Source: an uncultured delta proteobacterium (GTDB lineage Bacteria > Desulfobacterota > SM23-61). From it: a DNA stretch of 64,000 bases. The notes under the pieces were generated by a model that searched no databases, was not told the origin of the DNA, and saw only the letters and a program-made list of their open reading frames with translations. Location of the stretch: assembly GCA_963712535.1 (NCBI GenBank), contig CAVQIK010000017.1:2451-66450 (forward strand), in the 5' to 3' direction. A program made the position numbers and the translations under genes. Of this stretch, positions 6,281 through 64,000 are shown piece by piece. The number at the start of each line of letters is the position of its first letter. Positions within the stretch are counted from its first letter, which is position 1.

Positions 6281-6479
6281 TTTTGAAATCCGTGAGAAGC
6301 GAGTAGTGATTTTGAGGGGTCAACTTTCAAAATCTTAACTTTCTTTCAGGAAATTGGCAATGACGAGAGAAAGGATTCAGGCGTCGGGGCGAAGGTTTCC
6401 ATCTTTTCTTGTCCGGATTCCCGGCTGCTGATTTCGGGCTTTTACCCCTTGCGCTCTCGCGCCCTCGCGCCTCGCGGTT

Positions 6480-57099: not shown

Positions 57100-60000
57100 C
57101 TAGGCGATGCTGGTCAGAGCCACGAAATCACCCAGGCTGAGCTCATCTTCCGCTTCCAAACGGCGAATCAGGTCCTCGCGCTTTGGGGAACGCTCACTTT
57201 CGGTGCCGGAGGCCAGGCACAACTGGACGACCTGGAGGGCGGCACGCCAAACTGCCGTCTGACCCATTGGACGGTATCCTCGATCGCCTTCCCGTCGAGG
57301 GGTAGAGTCATGTGCTGCTCATTAACCTCGGTGCTCTGCGCCAGGAGCTTGCCCCCATTCAATGCGCTGTTGGCTGAAACCGTGCCGTCACCCGCGACAC
57401 ACCTCGAGTAATCCACGGTCCCGTCCTCCTGTACTTCCACCGCGCCGATGGTTTTCCTCGACGTGCAGACAATTGCGCGGGTGCGTTCCAGCATGGCCTG
57501 AGGCAGAGAACGCTCAAGGGTCAGCGGCGAGGTCAGTCGAGCGTCTCCGGGTGAAAGGCGCGAGAGCGGCCCCGGTTCGAAGACGGCGGGGTTGAGGAGT
57601 TTCTCCTGATCGACGGGCAGCAGGTCAAACAATCCCCTGAAGGTCTGGACCGTGTTCAGGATTTCCCGCGGCGACTTATGCCGCAGAATGTTCAGGAGAC
57701 ATAATTCCCTTTTTTCACCGCGCAGGGCCTGGAGCGCGCAGCCGGACCCGAGGAACGGGGTCCCTAAAAAGACGAGGGCCTTGACGGCGTCGAGCGCAGA
57801 GGTCTTCGCACCTCCCAGCTTCGTGAGGGCATCGGCCGCCACGAGCCCGCCCATGGAGTGGGCCACAAGGGCGATTTCTATGCCGGGGTTTTCACGGGTG
57901 AGGGCTTCGATTCGGTCGGCCAGGCCCTTGCCCAGATAGCGTATGGGCTGGCGCCAATCATAAGGGGCGTATTCAACCACGGGCCCGAATTCGTGCATCA
58001 ACGCCAGGGCCATTCGATCGAAGATGAGAGGTATGACCCCATAGGCTTCAATCTTAACCGAGGCGTCCGCGTCCGGTATGCGTTCGGCAGAAGTGACCGG
58101 TTCCACGCCGGCTTTTCCTCTCCCAGCGTCCCGAGGCGTCTCCCATTTGAGTTTCAGCGCGTCGAAATCATCGCCGAAGACCAGATTCCAGGGATCGAGC
58201 CACACTGCCCCCAGATTGCCCGAGCGGTCGTGGAGAAGCGACCCCATGATGCCCGGCAAAATCAGAATGCGACGCTCTTTACCCGGGAATCCGCCGCTTT
58301 TTGTCTCTCGCCCAGACTCGAACCGTTCACGGAGAGAGTCGAACCTGTCCAGATGGTCCGACAGGGATGCAACCATATCCTCGCAAGGGCCAAGGACCTC
58401 GCCGCGCAGATGGTCCATCCAACCCTCGCTTGCTTCCGACCGCACGGCAGCCAGAACACGCCGGGCATTGAATCGGTCCAGGGCGGATACGGGTGTCGGT
58501 TTCGGAAGGCTATCGACAACACGGGCAGCGAATGGCACGAGAGGATAGACTCTCCCCAGAAAATTTCCCCATTCCGTTTCCCTCGCGAAGTCTAAACTCA
58601 TGTACAAGGCATCCTTGCCTCCGGCCTTCTGGGGATTGAAGTTCCCGGGTGCATAGATCGTAAGCCCGCTTGCGCTCCCGCACGAGGCAATCACAGCCTT
58701 CTTGAGAGCCTTCCGGGCGCTGTTCGCCTCCTTGGACCCCTTGTCTTTGGGGTCTGCCGCAGCTTCGAGGAAAGAACCGAGATCGCAGTAGCCTTCATCA
58801 GGCCTCGGGCTGCAATCGATGGCGCAGCGGCGCACACGATGATAGGCAGCCGGTTCGGCCACTGTCGACCACGCCCGGACAGTCTCGGCGAGCAGCGGAA
58901 TCTGTTCCAGATCGATTGCGCTCAAGGTCATTTCGTCTTTGTACAGCTTCTTGAACGAGCCGACGATGCTCTTGACGAGCTCCTGGGGCGTTGTTTCGGG
59001 ATGAATGGGAAGACCCTGGAAAGCACGGCTGTACCACCAGCCGTCGCCGGGCTCGGTCCTTTCGCTCCCCACGAGGATGTTGGCGGCTCCTTGGATCTGG
59101 TACGCAATTTCGATCATGGCCATGAGACAGGCGTCGAACCCCAGGATATCGATCTTTCGGCCGAGGATCTCTTTTATTTGCAGCAGGGCCTTGCGGAGCT
59201 CGGCGTTGTCAAGGAAGTCTCTGGAGGTATCATCGTAGCCGTAGCCTCGCGTTGGGCCCTGTTCGAGGATGGCCCGTCTCGTGCCGCTGAAGAAACCGAG
59301 CCGCCTTTGGGCGAGCCGGGCAGCCGTCCGGGGGCTCATCGATCCACGAGCGGTGCGATAAACATCTTGATCGTCGTGACCGCTGCCGTGGCCCCAGAGC
59401 ACCAGGGCGTTCCGCTCCGCAGGGAAGAGGTGGTGAGCCCATTTGCACGAAGTCGACGAGAGTTTTGGTGCTCCCCGTGTTGAGTTCGCCGTTGAACCGC
59501 TCGATCCGGTCCGCATCGAGATCTGTTTCCTTCAGGAGACGGTACCGGTAGCTCGCGTTCCCGGTGGCATCGTCCGTCTGCACAATGAAATGGACGGAAT
59601 CCGTCGAGCCGACCTGCTTCATTTCCATGAGATCCTGGGAGATGGCGTACTCAATGCCGCGGGGGTTACGGTCATCCCCTGCCATGTAGACGAGTATGGC
59701 CCATTTCGCCGGTTGGGGCAGCGGGCTCAGGGGCTTCAGCACCTCGAACCGCCGATGAGGATTGGCCGAATACCCGGGGCTTGTTGCGGCCATTTCTTTC
59801 ATTCTCGCAACCCGTCGGTTTTGGATCTGCTCCAGCACCCGGGACAGAACGACTTCCCGGTCCCAGCGCACAGGGTCCGGCTTCGGCTTAATGGTCTTAT
59901 ATTTTTTCCCCGCGGCCTTATAGTCGAGGATGCCATGATCGATGTCCCAGCCGCCGGGGTGAACCTCCTTACTGCGTTTTTCGAAAGGGCCCAGTCTTCC

Positions 60001-60585
60001 GTCCCCGTCATGATTCCGCAGCCGATCGAATCCATCCTGTCCCAGGGCATTCCGCACAGCGTCGAGCATGCGGCGGGCATACACATAGGAAAGGGCAACG
60101 TCGGCGGCTTCAAAGTCGGGATTATTTGCCGCAGAGGCGTGCTCGCCGTTGGTGATCCCTTTGTGCACCGCCAGGTCTTCGATACCGTGGAGCGCGTACC
60201 CCAGCCAGTAGAGGGACAGACGCACGTTCCCCATCTGCAGGGCGGACGTGCATTTCTGAAACTGGGCATGGACCCATTTCACGTAATCGTCGATGGCTTT
60301 ATTGATGATCGCGGTGCGTTTCGCCGTGTCCGTTCCGCAGAGATCCGCCTTATCAGGCGTCTGGGCATGGGCCGGAACGGTCTCGAAATCGTAGAAATCC
60401 GGGTCCTGAGCGGCGTCACAAAGGATATCGACTGACTGAGCCGAGAACCCCATTTCTTCTGTGATCTTGCCGGTAACCTCCCAGTGCCCGATGTGCCCGT
60501 AGGGCGGGTAAATACCGCCCGATGGGAGCCTCGTCCCCGGGGCAGACTTGACCTTGAAATTCCAGTCTTTCGGTGATTTTTGCAT
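57100..60585 (-). CDS. Multidomain protein: Zn-PLC/S1-P1-like domain + clostripain (C11) peptidase + alpha/beta-hydrolase lipase (two apparent frameshifts)
   Basis: N-terminal H..DPD..H..LGYALHGIEDLAVH; C11 motifs YMAGDD, NTG, WGHGSG, FDACLM, GSE; lipase motifs PGIMGS, YDWR, AHSMGG, GTPFLGS, GDGTV. A one-base shift at ~59443 joins ORFs 59230-60585 and 57168-59516; a second near 57230 extends the frame to TAG at 57100. Confidence 0.78.
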
Positions 60586-60831
60586 GGTTGCCCTCCATTT
60601 CCTATGGAATATTCCTGCCCCCCGGCCTCTCTGTCAATTCAGGGCTTTCCCCTCCTACCGCGGTTCCGAATGTTACGACTTTCGAAAATTACCATTCAAC
60701 TGCCGGGGGGACAACACTTATCTTCAACCGGCAGTACGCCACTTTCATAACTCAGGATCAGGAAACAACTTTGACATTGCGATGCGGGATCCGGAACCTA
60801 AAAGGATCTCGCTCCCATACATTCTTCGCGC

Positions 60832-60945
60832 AGACACCTGAAGCTGCGAGGAAGAACATTGAGAACCATCGACAGTCTGATCATCGCCTCAGGCATGGTC
60901 AACGGCGTAGAAAAAATCTTTTCCTAGGACGCCCATTTCCGCGCC
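60832..60945 (+). pseudogene. PIN/VapC toxin C-terminal remnant
   Basis: LRTIDSLIIASGMVNGVEKIFS*DAHF with an in-frame stop. Confidence 0.5.
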
Positions 60946-61188
60946 TCCATCCCGGCAGGGGTGTCTTTTTCCTTCGAATGGAATCCTGAGCGACCGCCCA
61001 TCTGATGAATGCTCCGAGGGATAAAGATTGCCTGGCAAGATATTGGAAAATTTAAGGACTACCCTGTGGATTCAAGGTGAACATTTAATTTCCAGGATCA
61101 GCCGCGGTAGAACGGAAAAGCGGCTCAGACTTATGCGTTCCAGAACCAATTTCCCCACCCGTGGTATTGGGCTAAGCTCACCAAAGCA

Positions 61189-61197
61189 TGCTATAAT
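61189..61197 (+). promoter_or_regulatory. Extended -10 promoter of the toxin-antitoxin operon
   Basis: TGCTATAAT followed by an AGGAGG RBS. Confidence 0.6.
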
Positions 61198-61211
61198 GCG
61201 CACAGGAGGAT

Positions 61212-61466
61212 ATGATCATGAAAGACCAGGAATTGCTTGAGAGAATCACTATCGATCCTCAAGTCATGGTTGGTAAGCCCGTTATCCGGGGGACGAGGTT
61301 GACGGTTGAATATATTTTGAATCTTCTTGCCCATGGGGCAACGGCAAGCGACATCCTGACCGAGTATAATGCCCTGACTCAGGAAGATATTCAGGCGTGT
61401 ATTTTGTTCGCAACCAAGTCACTGGAAAATACCACCTTTATGCCGCTGGGACTGGAGACAACATAG
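61212..61466 (+). CDS. DUF433 antitoxin-like protein
   Basis: RITIDPQVMVGKPVIRGTRLTV..IL..Y..LT.EDI.A. Confidence 0.92.
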   Translation: MIMKDQELLERITIDPQVMVGKPVIRGTRLTVEYILNLLAHGATASDILTEYNALTQEDIQACILFATKSLENTTFMPLGLETT

Positions 61467-61820
61467 ATGCGGTTTCTGGTGGACGAATCCACAGGCCCGG
61501 CGGTCGCGGCATGGCTGCGTCAGAAAGGGCATGAAGTTTTTTCAGTTTACGATAATTCTCGCGGCATGGCGGATGAAGAGATCATTCGCAAAGCGTTCAG
61601 CGAAAATTGGATACTGATGACCAATGATAAGGATTTTGGAGAGAAGGTATACCGCGAAAAGCGGCCGCACAAGGGCATCGTCTTGCTGCGGCTTGAAGAC
61701 GAACGTGCATTAGTCAAAATAGAGATTGTGAAGCGACTCTTGGAACGCTACGCCGACGGACTGTCAGGTCGATTTGTGGTTGTCACCGAAAGCGGTGTTC
61801 GTTTTGCCCGCCCCTTGTAA
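61467..61820 (+). CDS. DUF5615 PIN-like (Mut7-C) toxin
   Basis: MRFLVDES..LRQKGHEV..DEEI..TNDKDFGE; directly abuts DUF433. Confidence 0.9.
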   Translation: MRFLVDESTGPAVAAWLRQKGHEVFSVYDNSRGMADEEIIRKAFSENWILMTNDKDFGEKVYREKRPHKGIVLLRLEDERALVKIEIVKRLLERYADGLSGRFVVVTESGVRFARPL

Positions 61821-61899
61821 ACCCCCTCCCCGAACTTCGTTCCCCTATCTCTCGTGCCTGATGGCGCCTGTTTTTTTCGAAGGCAAATGCCGGAGGAAG

Positions 61900-62395
61900 C
61901 AGTTGCCAATTAAGAGTCTTAGAAGGCTGGCGTGAGATCATCGAATCCAAACCTCGCTTGACCCTGGCTCGCTTGATTGAACCTACCGTTCCCTGGCCCA
62001 GAATCTCCAACCCTTTACCAGGGCCGGTCAAGTCCTTGCTCATCGATGCAGACATTCTGCAAGAAGCCCGGTACATTCACTTAAACCCGCTGAGTATTCG
62101 AGAGGTCGTGGATCTCTCCACCGAGGCGAAGAGCATCTTCTCTTTAAATACCCCTGGAGCAGCGATCATGGGTACCATAGCCGAAGGAAGCGCAGGGATT
62201 TTCTTCGGGCGGGGGGAACTTTTGGTTTTTTGGTGGAAGGGACGGACAGGGCCGAAGGGCGTATGAACGCTTCGTAACGGAGGTCTGGAGCGGAAGGTGA
62301 CTAGCCCCTTGGCGAAAGGGGCGGGCCATTGGATCGTTGGGGAGGTGGTGTCTTTCCAAGGCCTAAAAGAGCGATTCTTGAAGAAATCGATACGG
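61900..62395 (+). pseudogene. Degraded RAYT/Y1 tyrosine transposase
   Basis: Across shifting frames: KSLLIDAD..ARYIHLNP; KYPWSS; GRRAYERFV..SPLAKG..IVGE. Confidence 0.7.
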
Positions 62396-62449
62396 CCGGA
62401 GAATGGGTCTTCAAACTTATGCGTCCTGGGAACCAACGTCCCGGCCGCA

Positions 62450-63329
62450 TTCATCGAGCACCGGATCGGGGACCGGCGCATCGTGCGGCTGATCCAGAAA
62501 TGGCTCAGGGCCGGTGTGCTGGAAGACGGGGAGCACACGCGCGGGGAGGTAGGAACGGTTCAGGGCGGAAGTATCAGCCCGCTGTTGGCCAATATCTATC
62601 TTCACTACGTGCTCGACCTGTGGGTCCAGCAATGGAGGACGAGGCGGGCGAAGGGCGATGTGATCATCGTGCGCTACGCCGACGACTTCATTGTGGGATT
62701 CGAGCATCGGTCGGAAGCCGAGCAGTTCCAAGAGCGATCTTCGGCAGCGGATGGCGAAGTTCGGACTGGAAGTGCACCCGGACAAGACCCGGCTGATCGA
62801 GTTTGGGCGGTTCGCCGCCCAGGATCGAGACCGCCGGGGCCGGGGGAAAGCCCGAGACCTTCAACTTCCTTGGTTTCACTCATAGCTGCGGGACCAACGA
62901 AGCGGGGAGGTTCGAGGTGCGGCGGCAGACGATGCGCCAGAAGTGGCAGGCCAAGCTGAAGGAAGTGTATGCGACGCTTCGGAGCAAAATGCATTCGCCG
63001 GTACCGGAGCAGGGGTGTTACCTGCAGGCGGTGATGCGCGGGCACATCGAGTATTACGGGGTGCCCGGGAACCGACCGTCGATCGCTGCCTTCCGCTTCC
63101 GTCTGGGCTGGCTCTGGTGGAAGGTGCTTCGGCGCCGAAGCCAGAGGACGACCGTCACGGCGGAACGGCTGTGCCGCTTGGTAGAGAGGTGGATTCCCGA
63201 GCCTTATCTCAGCCATCCCTTACTTTCCTAGAGGCCCGAGCGTCTGACCCGAGGCAGGAGCCGTATGAGGGAAAGCCTCACGTACGGATCTGTGCGGGGG
63301 GCGCCGGGCGACCGGCGTCCCTACCGCGA
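62450..63329 (+). mobile_element. 5'-truncated group II intron (RT/maturase 3' half + domains V-VI)
   Basis: HRIGDRRIVRLIQKWL, QGGSISPLLANIYLH, YADD, HPDKT, FLGFTH, domain X; two frameshifts; followed by DV/DVI. Confidence 0.9.
63258..63329 (+). ncRNA. Group II intron domains V and VI
   Basis: GAGCCGTATGAGGGAAAGCCTCACGTACGGATC (AGC triad, GAAA loop); DVI GGGGCGCCGG-GCGA-CCGGCGTCCCTACC with bulged A. Confidence 0.9.
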
Positions 63330-63789
63330 AGAATGACGTCCCTGCTTAGGAAGAGGGTTTTTTCCGCAAAGTTTTAATGAATAATGGGTAGGGAAGCGAT
63401 GAAGAGGTGGGGCGGGGGAACATAAGAAATTTTCAACCTGTCAGGGCAAACGTCCACTTCTTTAATCCTCCGCAATGCACGTTCTGCATGAACGTCCCCT
63501 TTCTCAGGCTGGGTCCACGCGACTGTTTTTCATTACCCCCTGAGGTGGTCTGCTAGATAGCCCCGGAATATTGGATGCGAAGTGGCCGAGCCATAAATAA
63601 CCTTCATCACACTTTCGCAACTGACGCTAACAAAATAGACCTGACCCCATCGTCAGAATGGAATAATATACCCTTATCCCCATTCAGGTCACAACCAGAA
63701 GTTTATGGAGGGGCTTTGAAAGAGCGCTAAGAAATGTGAGGGAAACAGCGGGTCGGAGATGGAGAGTTGAGGGTAGGAGCGCAGGGCAG

Positions 63790-63912
63790 GAGGGTTTCAC
63801 AAGCCCTTTTCGAGGTGGCTTGGCGATTTTAGTCCGGAGTATGGGATTCTCGCTGGCAGAGATGGCACGGAAATTAGCGGTGTGCACCTCCGATGTCGCC
63901 GACGCTGTTTGA
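63790..63912 (+). pseudogene. HTH-like C-terminal remnant of a RAYT-type transposase
   Basis: LVRSMGFSLAEMARKLAVCTSDVADAV* resembles the HTH tail of long RAYTs. Confidence 0.5.
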
Positions 63913-64000
63913 AAACGAGAGACACAGATTGGGTACAAATTTTCTACCACGTCGCCCTGATCCTAGAAACAGGTGCGAACATAGACGATTCCCGAAATAT

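Follow-up and report, generated by a model that had tools for sequence, protein, structure and literature searches.

Features of the motif-rich stretch

The window examined here is a 64,000-nucleotide (nt) stretch of DNA from an uncultured delta proteobacterium, corresponding to positions 2451-66450 of contig C17 in a genome of 5.95 Mb and 22 contigs (C numbers denote its contigs). Towards its end, between positions 61100 and 64000, a short motif recurs among pieces of unrelated DNA. An initial annotation of the sequence had tied this motif to RAYT-like HUH Y1 transposases, and the strings that it quoted were all read out again at their coordinates. The association itself was upheld: sequence comparison identifies the recurring motif as the outer tip of the terminal inverted repeats (TIRs) around genes for RAYT-like HUH Y1 transposases, in elements of the TIRYT or TIRtron kind, and it flanks such genes both in this genome and at a locus of another genome (L064). 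The tip reads 5'-GGGG[AT]C... at the left end of an element and ...G[AT]CCCC-3' at the right. The features of the stretch, with the TIR families labelled F2, F3, F6b and F7, are as follows.

61125..61156 (+): TIR end F6b, copy 1, diverged, ending in ...TTTCCCC; either a solo end or all that is left of a TIRYT element
61165..61211 (+): promoter-like sequence with a ribosome-binding site for a toxin-antitoxin pair (by eye: TTGGGC, 17 nt, TG-n-TATAAT, then AGGAGG)
61212..61466 (+): intact gene with a DUF433 domain, putative antitoxin (PF04255, E 6e-24)
61467..61820 (+): PIN-like gene (DUF5615/PIN_10/Mut7-C), putative toxin, intact (PF18480, E 7.2e-24; PF18478, E 9.6e-10; PF01927, E 2.1e-6)
61854..61877 (+): terminator-like hairpin and T run behind the pair
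61994..62205 (+): TIRYT remnant, decayed, frameshifted and 5'-truncated; ARYIHLNPL (Tyr-motif region) and YPWSS lie in different frames and the HUH part is missing
62415..62448 (+): TIR end F6b, copy 2, right end of a TIRYT remnant; pattern TATGCRYYSTRRGAAYCAACGTCCC
62450..63330 (+): group II intron, 3' portion (~1271-2150 in the numbering of a full copy), with domains 5-6 at 63256-63330
63331..63376 (+): 3' exon, consisting of the right half of a hairpin like a repetitive extragenic palindrome (REP) (GAATGACG...) and a conserved tail; 89% match to C4 329314-329358
63474..63499 (+): solo TIR end F2, the same as the TIR of intact TIRYT genes on C14 (181545-182723) and C15 (86335-87345)
63506..63745 (no strand assigned): sharply bordered repeat unit of ~240 nt that also occurs at C3 599-354 (97.6% identity across 246 aligned nt)
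63532..63594 (-): start of an F3 TIRYT gene, first 21 codons (MARPLRIQYSGAI, then a stop, ...), 3'-truncated; tblastn E 4.15e-5 against the C16 TIRYT
63626..63648 (+): TIR end F3, left end of a minus-strand remnant; the plus strand reads GACCTGACCCC
63729..63963 (+): C-terminal (helix-turn-helix) remnant of an F7 TIRYT
~63938-63958 (+): TIR end F7, aligning with TIR ends of the relatives G001, G011 and G012 (G numbers denote genomes of relatives)

Seven same-strand motifs had been listed for this region, and five of them are genuine TIR ends, ending at 61156, 62442, 63499, 63648 and ~63958 and coming from four TIR families (F6b twice, F2, F3 and F7). The two others, at 63331-63342 and 63448-63455, fail as TIR ends, as does a reverse motif at 6316-6343 that had been thought to be related. 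The first of these three was rejected as a TIRtron end since it is the right half of an abundant and unrelated REP hairpin, and no repeat family was found for the 8-mer at 63448-63455. The reverse motif is unique in the genome, where a search allowing up to five mismatches returned one other match, with five mismatches.

The 28-mers at 61129-61156 and 62415-62442 have an exact 12-mer in common, which occurs three times in the genome (in the two 28-mers and at C8 20020) and 20 times at up to one mismatch. The two F6b copies align over ~32 nt only, that is, over the TIR itself, and the 16-mer core of copy 1 matches F6 ends elsewhere in the genome. No intact F6b gene is present in this genome. 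The degenerate 25-nt F6b pattern (TATGCRYYSTRRGAAYCAACGTCCC) was found at 34 loci in other public genomes, most of the records being labelled Nitrospirota or Deltaproteobacteria, and at L064 (L030 to L064 denote loci from other genomes) F6b TIRs lie inverted on both sides of an intact gene for a protein of 331 amino acids, the stop codon of which falls inside the right TIR. The L064 protein and the F2 TIRYTs of the present genome share 47-49% identity. For F2 an 18-mer was found in 12 of the 17 genomes of the taxonomic family, against none for the reversed control, and the F3 end recurs as exact 24-mers at C3 1725-1748 and C11 49989-50012, with the same F3 TIR standing on both flanks of the TIRYT gene on C16.

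Whether the motif is denser here than in the background depends on the form that is counted. Di Nocera et al. (2013; PMC3733652) described TIRtrons and TIRYTs with the TIR consensus GGGGWSAS, their TIRs occurring as singles, dimers and clusters. In the window GGGGWSAS was observed 29 times against 31.55 expected, and AACGTCCC three times against 2.86; both are at chance level and so counts of bare 8-mers are uninformative. The long TIR form is strongly clustered, with 69 strict ends in 5.95 Mb and four of them within 61100-64000, a count made post hoc as the region had been picked because of the motif.

RAYT 3' remnants had been reported directly before two of the motifs. Before the second 28-mer this stands, if weakly: the remnant at 61994-62205 matches the genome's own TIRYTs by tblastn (E 4.7e-4 for 61994-62092; 0.03 for 62143-62205) and the intact F6b TIRYT of L064 with E 0.007. 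Before the first 28-mer the proposal was dropped, as its upstream DNA aligns convincingly with that of the second over the TIR alone, and Pfam and tblastn gave no protein homology upstream of F6b copy 1. A remnant does precede the motif near 63950, where the F7 sequence has DNA matches in G011, G012, G001, G013 and G005 and where the alignments of the relatives end at ...CTACGTCCCC. The ~240-nt unit contains the 3'-truncated F3 TIRYT start, its TIR and 96 nt beyond. Both copies of this unit, in the window and on C3, are followed by a left-truncated TIRYT remnant, a different one at each place.

The DUF433 and PIN-like genes abut, with the stop codon of the first at 61464-61466 and the start of the second at 61467. 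This is the layout of a type II toxin-antitoxin system, and on domain content and arrangement the two are regarded here as a putative pair. They form the sole intact transcription unit of the stretch and lie between two remnants. A complete promoter and toxin-antitoxin cassette had been proposed to follow the first motif; the two genes are indeed intact, whereas the promoter-like sequence at 61165-61211 was recognised by eye and is missing from the output of a consensus promoter scan.

As a separate observation, the translation of window positions 60850-60930 resembles the C terminus of PIN/VapC proteins (...DSLIIASGMVNGVEKIFS, then a stop), with 81% identity to C16 30481-30563 and 77% to a piece of G002, and are probably another gene fragment.

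The borders initially drawn for the intron fragment were borne out. Homology to the copies on C14, C8 and C3 begins at 62450 (blastn), and domains 5-6 (RF00029, 46.5 bits against a gathering score of 40) end at 63330. The first ~1270 nt of the 2150-nt full-length copies are missing, and the reverse transcriptase frame (PF00078, E 2.4e-11) is split by frameshifts over three open reading frames. Related contigs from public sequencing runs have one nt fewer at 62735 and at 62847. The intron fragment in the window is dead. Its 3' exon belongs to a hairpin repeat, CTGGATTCCGGCCTTCGCCG followed directly by GAATGACG, with 95 matches at up to four mismatches (about 80-95 copies genome-wide; places noted on C7 are 311314 and 310630). 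A copy of the same intron subfamily on C7 is inserted exactly between these two halves, of which the window keeps the right one. The REP-like hairpin serves one subfamily of group II introns as its homing site, as seen in two copies only, on C7 and in the window. A second domain-6-like intron piece, 92% identical to window 63292-63327, was noticed at C17 66477-66512, which is 27-62 nt past the window end.

TIRYT genes and terminal repeat families of the genome

A search of the whole genome with PF01797 (Y1_Tnp) gave 13 matches, 12 of them above the cut-off and none on C17. One gene is a true IS200-type transposase (C15 543023-543454) and 11 are longer and RAYT-like. Flank reading together with a flank-sequence scan revealed, for eight of these 11 genes, one sequence of 14-26 nt that is present on either side in inverted orientation; the exceptions are a gene on C4 with a TIR on the left only, a gene at C10:56519 with one on the right only, and a gene on C12 without a clear TIR. 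The 11 genes fall into five TIR families, F1 to F5, and two more families are known only as gene-less ends and remnants. The repeats of the first six families are:

F1: AAGTGATGTGTCCCC
F2: TTCTGCACGAACGTCCCC
F3: AGACCTGACCCC
F4: TTGCCTGACCCC
F5: GGTGTCCGGTAC
F6 (the sixth, in gene-less doublets): CAGAACC[AT]ACGTCCCC

When the tips are compared with GGGGWSAS, those of F1 (GGGGACAC) and of F3 and F4 (GGGGTCAG) fit and that of F5 (GTACCGGACACC) does not. Two families also occur as inverted doublets without a gene:

F2: C13 55115-55163, C6 74516-74564, C9 134324-134374 and C3 351834-351882
F6: C12 277580-277692 and C5 353223-353332

TIRYT fragments of both polarities are numerous elsewhere in the genome. 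Five representative TIRYT proteins were compared with protein families and all five match PF01797. The F4 protein from C5 carries Bac_DnaA_C (E 2.2e-8, above the Pfam cut-off) and the F3 protein from C16 has an HTH_23 match just under its cut-off (E 2.4e-4; 21.3 bits against 24.6). The other three representatives gave no C-terminal Pfam match, and F1 and F5 are without a detectable C-terminal helix-turn-helix. Against the NCBIfam model REP_Tyr_transpos (NF047646) the five scored 60.8-75.9 bits, under the cut-off of 80 bits.

Other arrangements of these repeats were seen in passing. Four F6-like ends stand in tandem and in one orientation within 115 nt at C10 286970-287083. At C10 297250-297320 and C5 523360-523432 an F6b-type end follows ~45 nt after a CCTCCACCTCTGGTGGAGG-type hairpin, similar to the hairpin that bounds the IS200-type element on C15 on the right, and these two places may be composites of the IS200-type and TIRYT kinds of element. 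The genome is very rich in repeats in general. One family (...GCAAATTTTTGCCGTCCCCTGGACA) has 49 copies, arranged as inverted pairs with a spacing of ~205 nt, a palindrome tagged with GTAG (GTAGGGGCGGGGTGACCCCGCCCCTAC) has 44, and a further family has 25.

Origin of the mosaic

The comparisons above establish what the ends and the remnants are, where the intron fragment starts and stops, and which sequence is its homing site. In our view the stretch is most probably a pile of broken TIRYT elements, a broken intron and an intact toxin-antitoxin pair, and not a new gene-capture system. Each of the five TIR ends would then carry at most a left-truncated remnant of its element. The intron would formerly have been seated in a REP hairpin, later losing its first ~1270 nt and its reading frame. 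It is suggested that elements inserted time and again into, or next to, each other and that deletions followed; the order of these events is likewise conjectural. Unrelated DNA does start right after the motif, as had been noted at the outset, because the element ends there; this is expected at the end of any mobile element and no mechanism of capture is needed to account for it.

The initial annotation had instead proposed a RAYT-driven capture of foreign DNA behind the motif, giving an integron-like array without an integrase, and this we regard as highly improbable. It is true that unrelated segments begin 0-60 nt after four of the ends and that one segment is a complete toxin-antitoxin unit with its own promoter-like and terminator-like sites. 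However, four of the five segments after or between ends are broken mobile DNA, with no cassettes among them, and the stretch is therefore not like a cassette array. Apart from the next element's own end, no right border of the attC kind is common to the segments. Elsewhere in the genome the same ends are found mostly flanking a TIRYT gene or in doublets without a gene. As for the supposed punctuation marks, one is a different repeat and one on the same strand is unsupported (two, when the reverse motif is counted). An onion model, in which the five ends would have left-pointing partners, was also considered; none was found upstream of 61100, where a normal gene ends at 60585.

It could further be argued that part of the mosaic is an artefact, repeats at the end of a contig having been joined chimerically during assembly. 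The contig stops 256 nt past the window end, so that the motif-rich 3 kb lies near a contig end, where repeats are to be expected, and it is itself made of repeats; the genome has a rated completeness of 75.55% and a contamination of 4.47%. We compared the stretch with contigs from public sequencing runs, X1 and X2 among them. The run that matches the stretch best is X1 (word share 0.36). The run contigs are short, covering at most 527 nt of the stretch, and the uncovered parts prove nothing. None of them spans a key junction, the junction at 62448/62449 being among those left unbridged, and one contig continues differently. On the other hand there is no common repeat at the 62448/62450 junction that could have misled the assembler, contigs from X1 confirm 61452-62054 and 63499-63744 with 0-5 differences, and similar stacks occur inside long contigs elsewhere in the genome. 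We therefore consider an artefact to be improbable. Among 41 genomes searched with window positions 59000-64000 no orthologous locus was found; the matches were repeat pieces only, namely the intron, the F2 TIR, the F7 remnant and the PIN fragment. The genomes compared include none of the same species.

Several observations nevertheless weigh against the reading as a pile of broken elements. All five ends in the window are co-oriented and the intron junction lies within 7 nt of a TIR tip, neither of which plain decay explains. The junction at 62448/62449 depends on the present assembly alone. The tips of F2, F6/F6b and F7 end in GGGGACGT and so agree with only the first six of the eight positions of GGGGWSAS. 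The remnants beside the 28-mers are weak, with no Pfam match, tblastn E values in the range already given at copy 2 and nothing at copy 1. As the locus is absent from close relatives, in the 41-genome comparison, gain and loss of segments cannot be traced. Lastly, where ends of different families neighbour each other within 500 nt, all pairs (8/8) are co-oriented and the right partner is a left-truncated element, a pattern likewise left unexplained by plain decay. Several of these pairs depend on pattern matches with one mismatch. The pairs are:

C3 437691/437725
C5 127780/127995
C10 102446/102703
C10 105435/105481
C11 49579/50011
C13 55163/55386
C15 89999/90313
window 63499/63648

Whole elements inserted side by side would give facing ends, and it is nested insertion, or deletion anchored at an end, that would give the co-orientation observed.

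Another feature left unexplained by plain decay is a small scar just outside many ends. There the final 4-12 nt of the TIR and the adjoining 4-10 nt of flank are repeated head to tail, and the joint often shows microhomology of 1-2 nt. In the present genome it was found at 11 of 99 pattern-defined ends, compared with 33 of all 9750 G[AT]CCCC sites. For F2 ends at loci of relatives (the 11 other genomes of the taxonomic family with the motif) the figures are 7/31 against a background of 30/19852 (Fisher 1e-13), and for F6b ends 2/34 against 70/26852 (p 0.004). Examples are found at C7 13662, C15 353808, C12 170836, C5 127780 and C14 3466, and in relatives at L030, L031, L032, L035, L041, L051 and L064. 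None of the five ends in the window itself has such a duplication. The flanks also seemed at one point to hold a target-site motif, pyrimidine-rich in F2 and [CG]AAAGTT in F6b, on both sides of the elements; this was discarded as a weakly conserved extension of the TIR.

It is possible, although we hold it to be doubtful, that the TIR ends are active break sites, with the TIRYT nicking single-stranded DNA a few bases beyond the tip. Repair of the nick might leave tandem duplications with microhomology and might at times join the tip to distant DNA, by deletion or rearrangement anchored at the end, thereby building co-oriented stacks of left-truncated elements. Such a process would add to the piling and decay proposed above and would not replace them. 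The abundance of the scar at TIR ends, far above background both in the present genome and in other genera, is consistent with it, as are the uniform orientation of different-family neighbours with their left-truncated right partners and the position of the intron breakpoint 0-7 nt past a TIR tip. A contig from X2 follows 62385-62448 with one difference and then runs into DNA unlike the window. The E. coli enzyme TnpA_REP is reported to cut single-stranded DNA between C and T, for the most part immediately 5' or 3' of the REP, to become joined to it by a Tyr-5'P link and to be able to transfer strands (PMC8266576); from such cutting and strand transfer beside a repeat, cuts outside the TIR tip followed by microhomology repair are a reasonable inference.

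Against this, the literature examined held no reports on cleavage, mobility or targets of TIRYTs, and slippage of replication at the base of paired TIRs, induced by the hairpin, could produce the same small duplications with no enzyme at all. The five window ends are themselves without a scar, nested insertion also yields co-orientation, the dependence of several pairs on one-mismatch matches applies here too, and spacers of 8-33 nt separate the end from the next remnant on C3, C10 and C5. We would suggest, tentatively and as an outcome of our own analysis, that TIRYTs may nick in vivo just outside the TIR tips, that repair might leave the scars, and that the ends could in this way be rearrangement hotspots of the elements' own making, with stacks such as that in the window as one result. 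Of the recombination hotspot originally envisaged at the motif only this weaker form is retained, on the indirect grounds of scar enrichment and co-orientation, and capture is not part of it.

In the parts examined of PMC3733652 neither end-plus-flank duplications nor co-oriented stacks are mentioned (the phrase 'target site duplication' has 0 occurrences), and in those of PMC3337134 only unexplained tandem REPIN arrays are; our literature search was narrow and no claim of novelty is made. The scar at ends in the present genome and in other genera, taken with the co-orientation, amounts to a testable prediction of the TIRYT cut site, and it offers a cheap genomic read-out of TIRYT activity.

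Relation to known systems

Integrons are marked by an intI integrase, an attI site and cassettes bounded by attC sites. The stretch resembles them, and capture by ISCR/IS91 elements, only in its picture of unrelated segments split by a recurring site. No attC-like site pair or Y2 rolling-circle transposase was seen in it, in an analysis that included no search aimed at intI, attC or an IS91-type gene.

REPtron and REPIN-RAYT systems are reportedly the subject of papers by Nunvar (2010) and by Bertels & Rainey (2011). The elements described here are like them in having a domesticated-looking Y1 transposase and cognate short repeats genome-wide, with inverted doublets that can form hairpins (PMC3337134, PMC8266576); the enzymes of those systems cut single-stranded DNA beside the repeat. 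They differ in that no GTAG-tagged hairpin REP stands at the genes here, which have TIRs as their flanks and fall below the REP_Tyr_transpos cut-off, and in that several families, with two to three copies of the gene and numerous fragments, are closer to insertion sequences in this respect. The class of 'CGTC-tagged REPs' was considered for the motif, which contains CGTC, and set aside, as the members described in PMC3733652 are hairpins with 8-9 bp stems and without a transposase. With IS200/IS605 there is a common catalytic family (PF01797) and single-strand chemistry, and one true copy exists in the genome, the IS200-type gene on C15. The ends of IS200/IS605 elements, in contrast, are subterminal hairpins without TIRs, and insertion takes place 3' of a fixed tetra- or pentanucleotide (PMC8266576), whereas the elements here have long TIRs.

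The seat of the intron also has a parallel among mobile elements that target REPs. Two of nine group II intron copies in P. putida KT2440 were found to be REP-associated (Tobes & Pareja 2006; PMC1525189), and a group II intron in a REP-like hairpin is what we see in the window and on C7, in another host and with another family of repeat.

The closest match is to the TIRtrons. As in those of PMC3733652, a Y1 HUH gene lies within long TIRs, the TIRs also occur as copies without a gene, and one genome holds several families; the incomplete tips of F2, F6/F6b and F7, which fit GGGGWS only, are a point of difference. Quentin et al. (2018; PMC6006769) equated TIRYTs with subclass 2.1 of TnpA_Y1, which has C-terminal Bac_DnaA_C or HTH domains. 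The proteins of this genome resemble that subclass in their RAYT-like core and in the lack of a classical REP nearby. Of the C-terminal Bac_DnaA_C or HTH_23/28 domains of the subclass, the five representatives gave the one match above and the one just under the cut-off described earlier, F1 and F5 being without a detectable helix-turn-helix, and on domains alone the proteins would be placed in it. The architecture of TIRtrons is already in print (PMC3733652, PMC6006769). The finding as such is an ordinary one, namely a decayed mosaic close to the end of a contig, from an uncultured lineage known from metagenomes of the bog, soil and wetland type, and what the stretch adds to the known systems is, on the sequence comparisons presented here, further TIRtron/TIRYT members in a decayed state.

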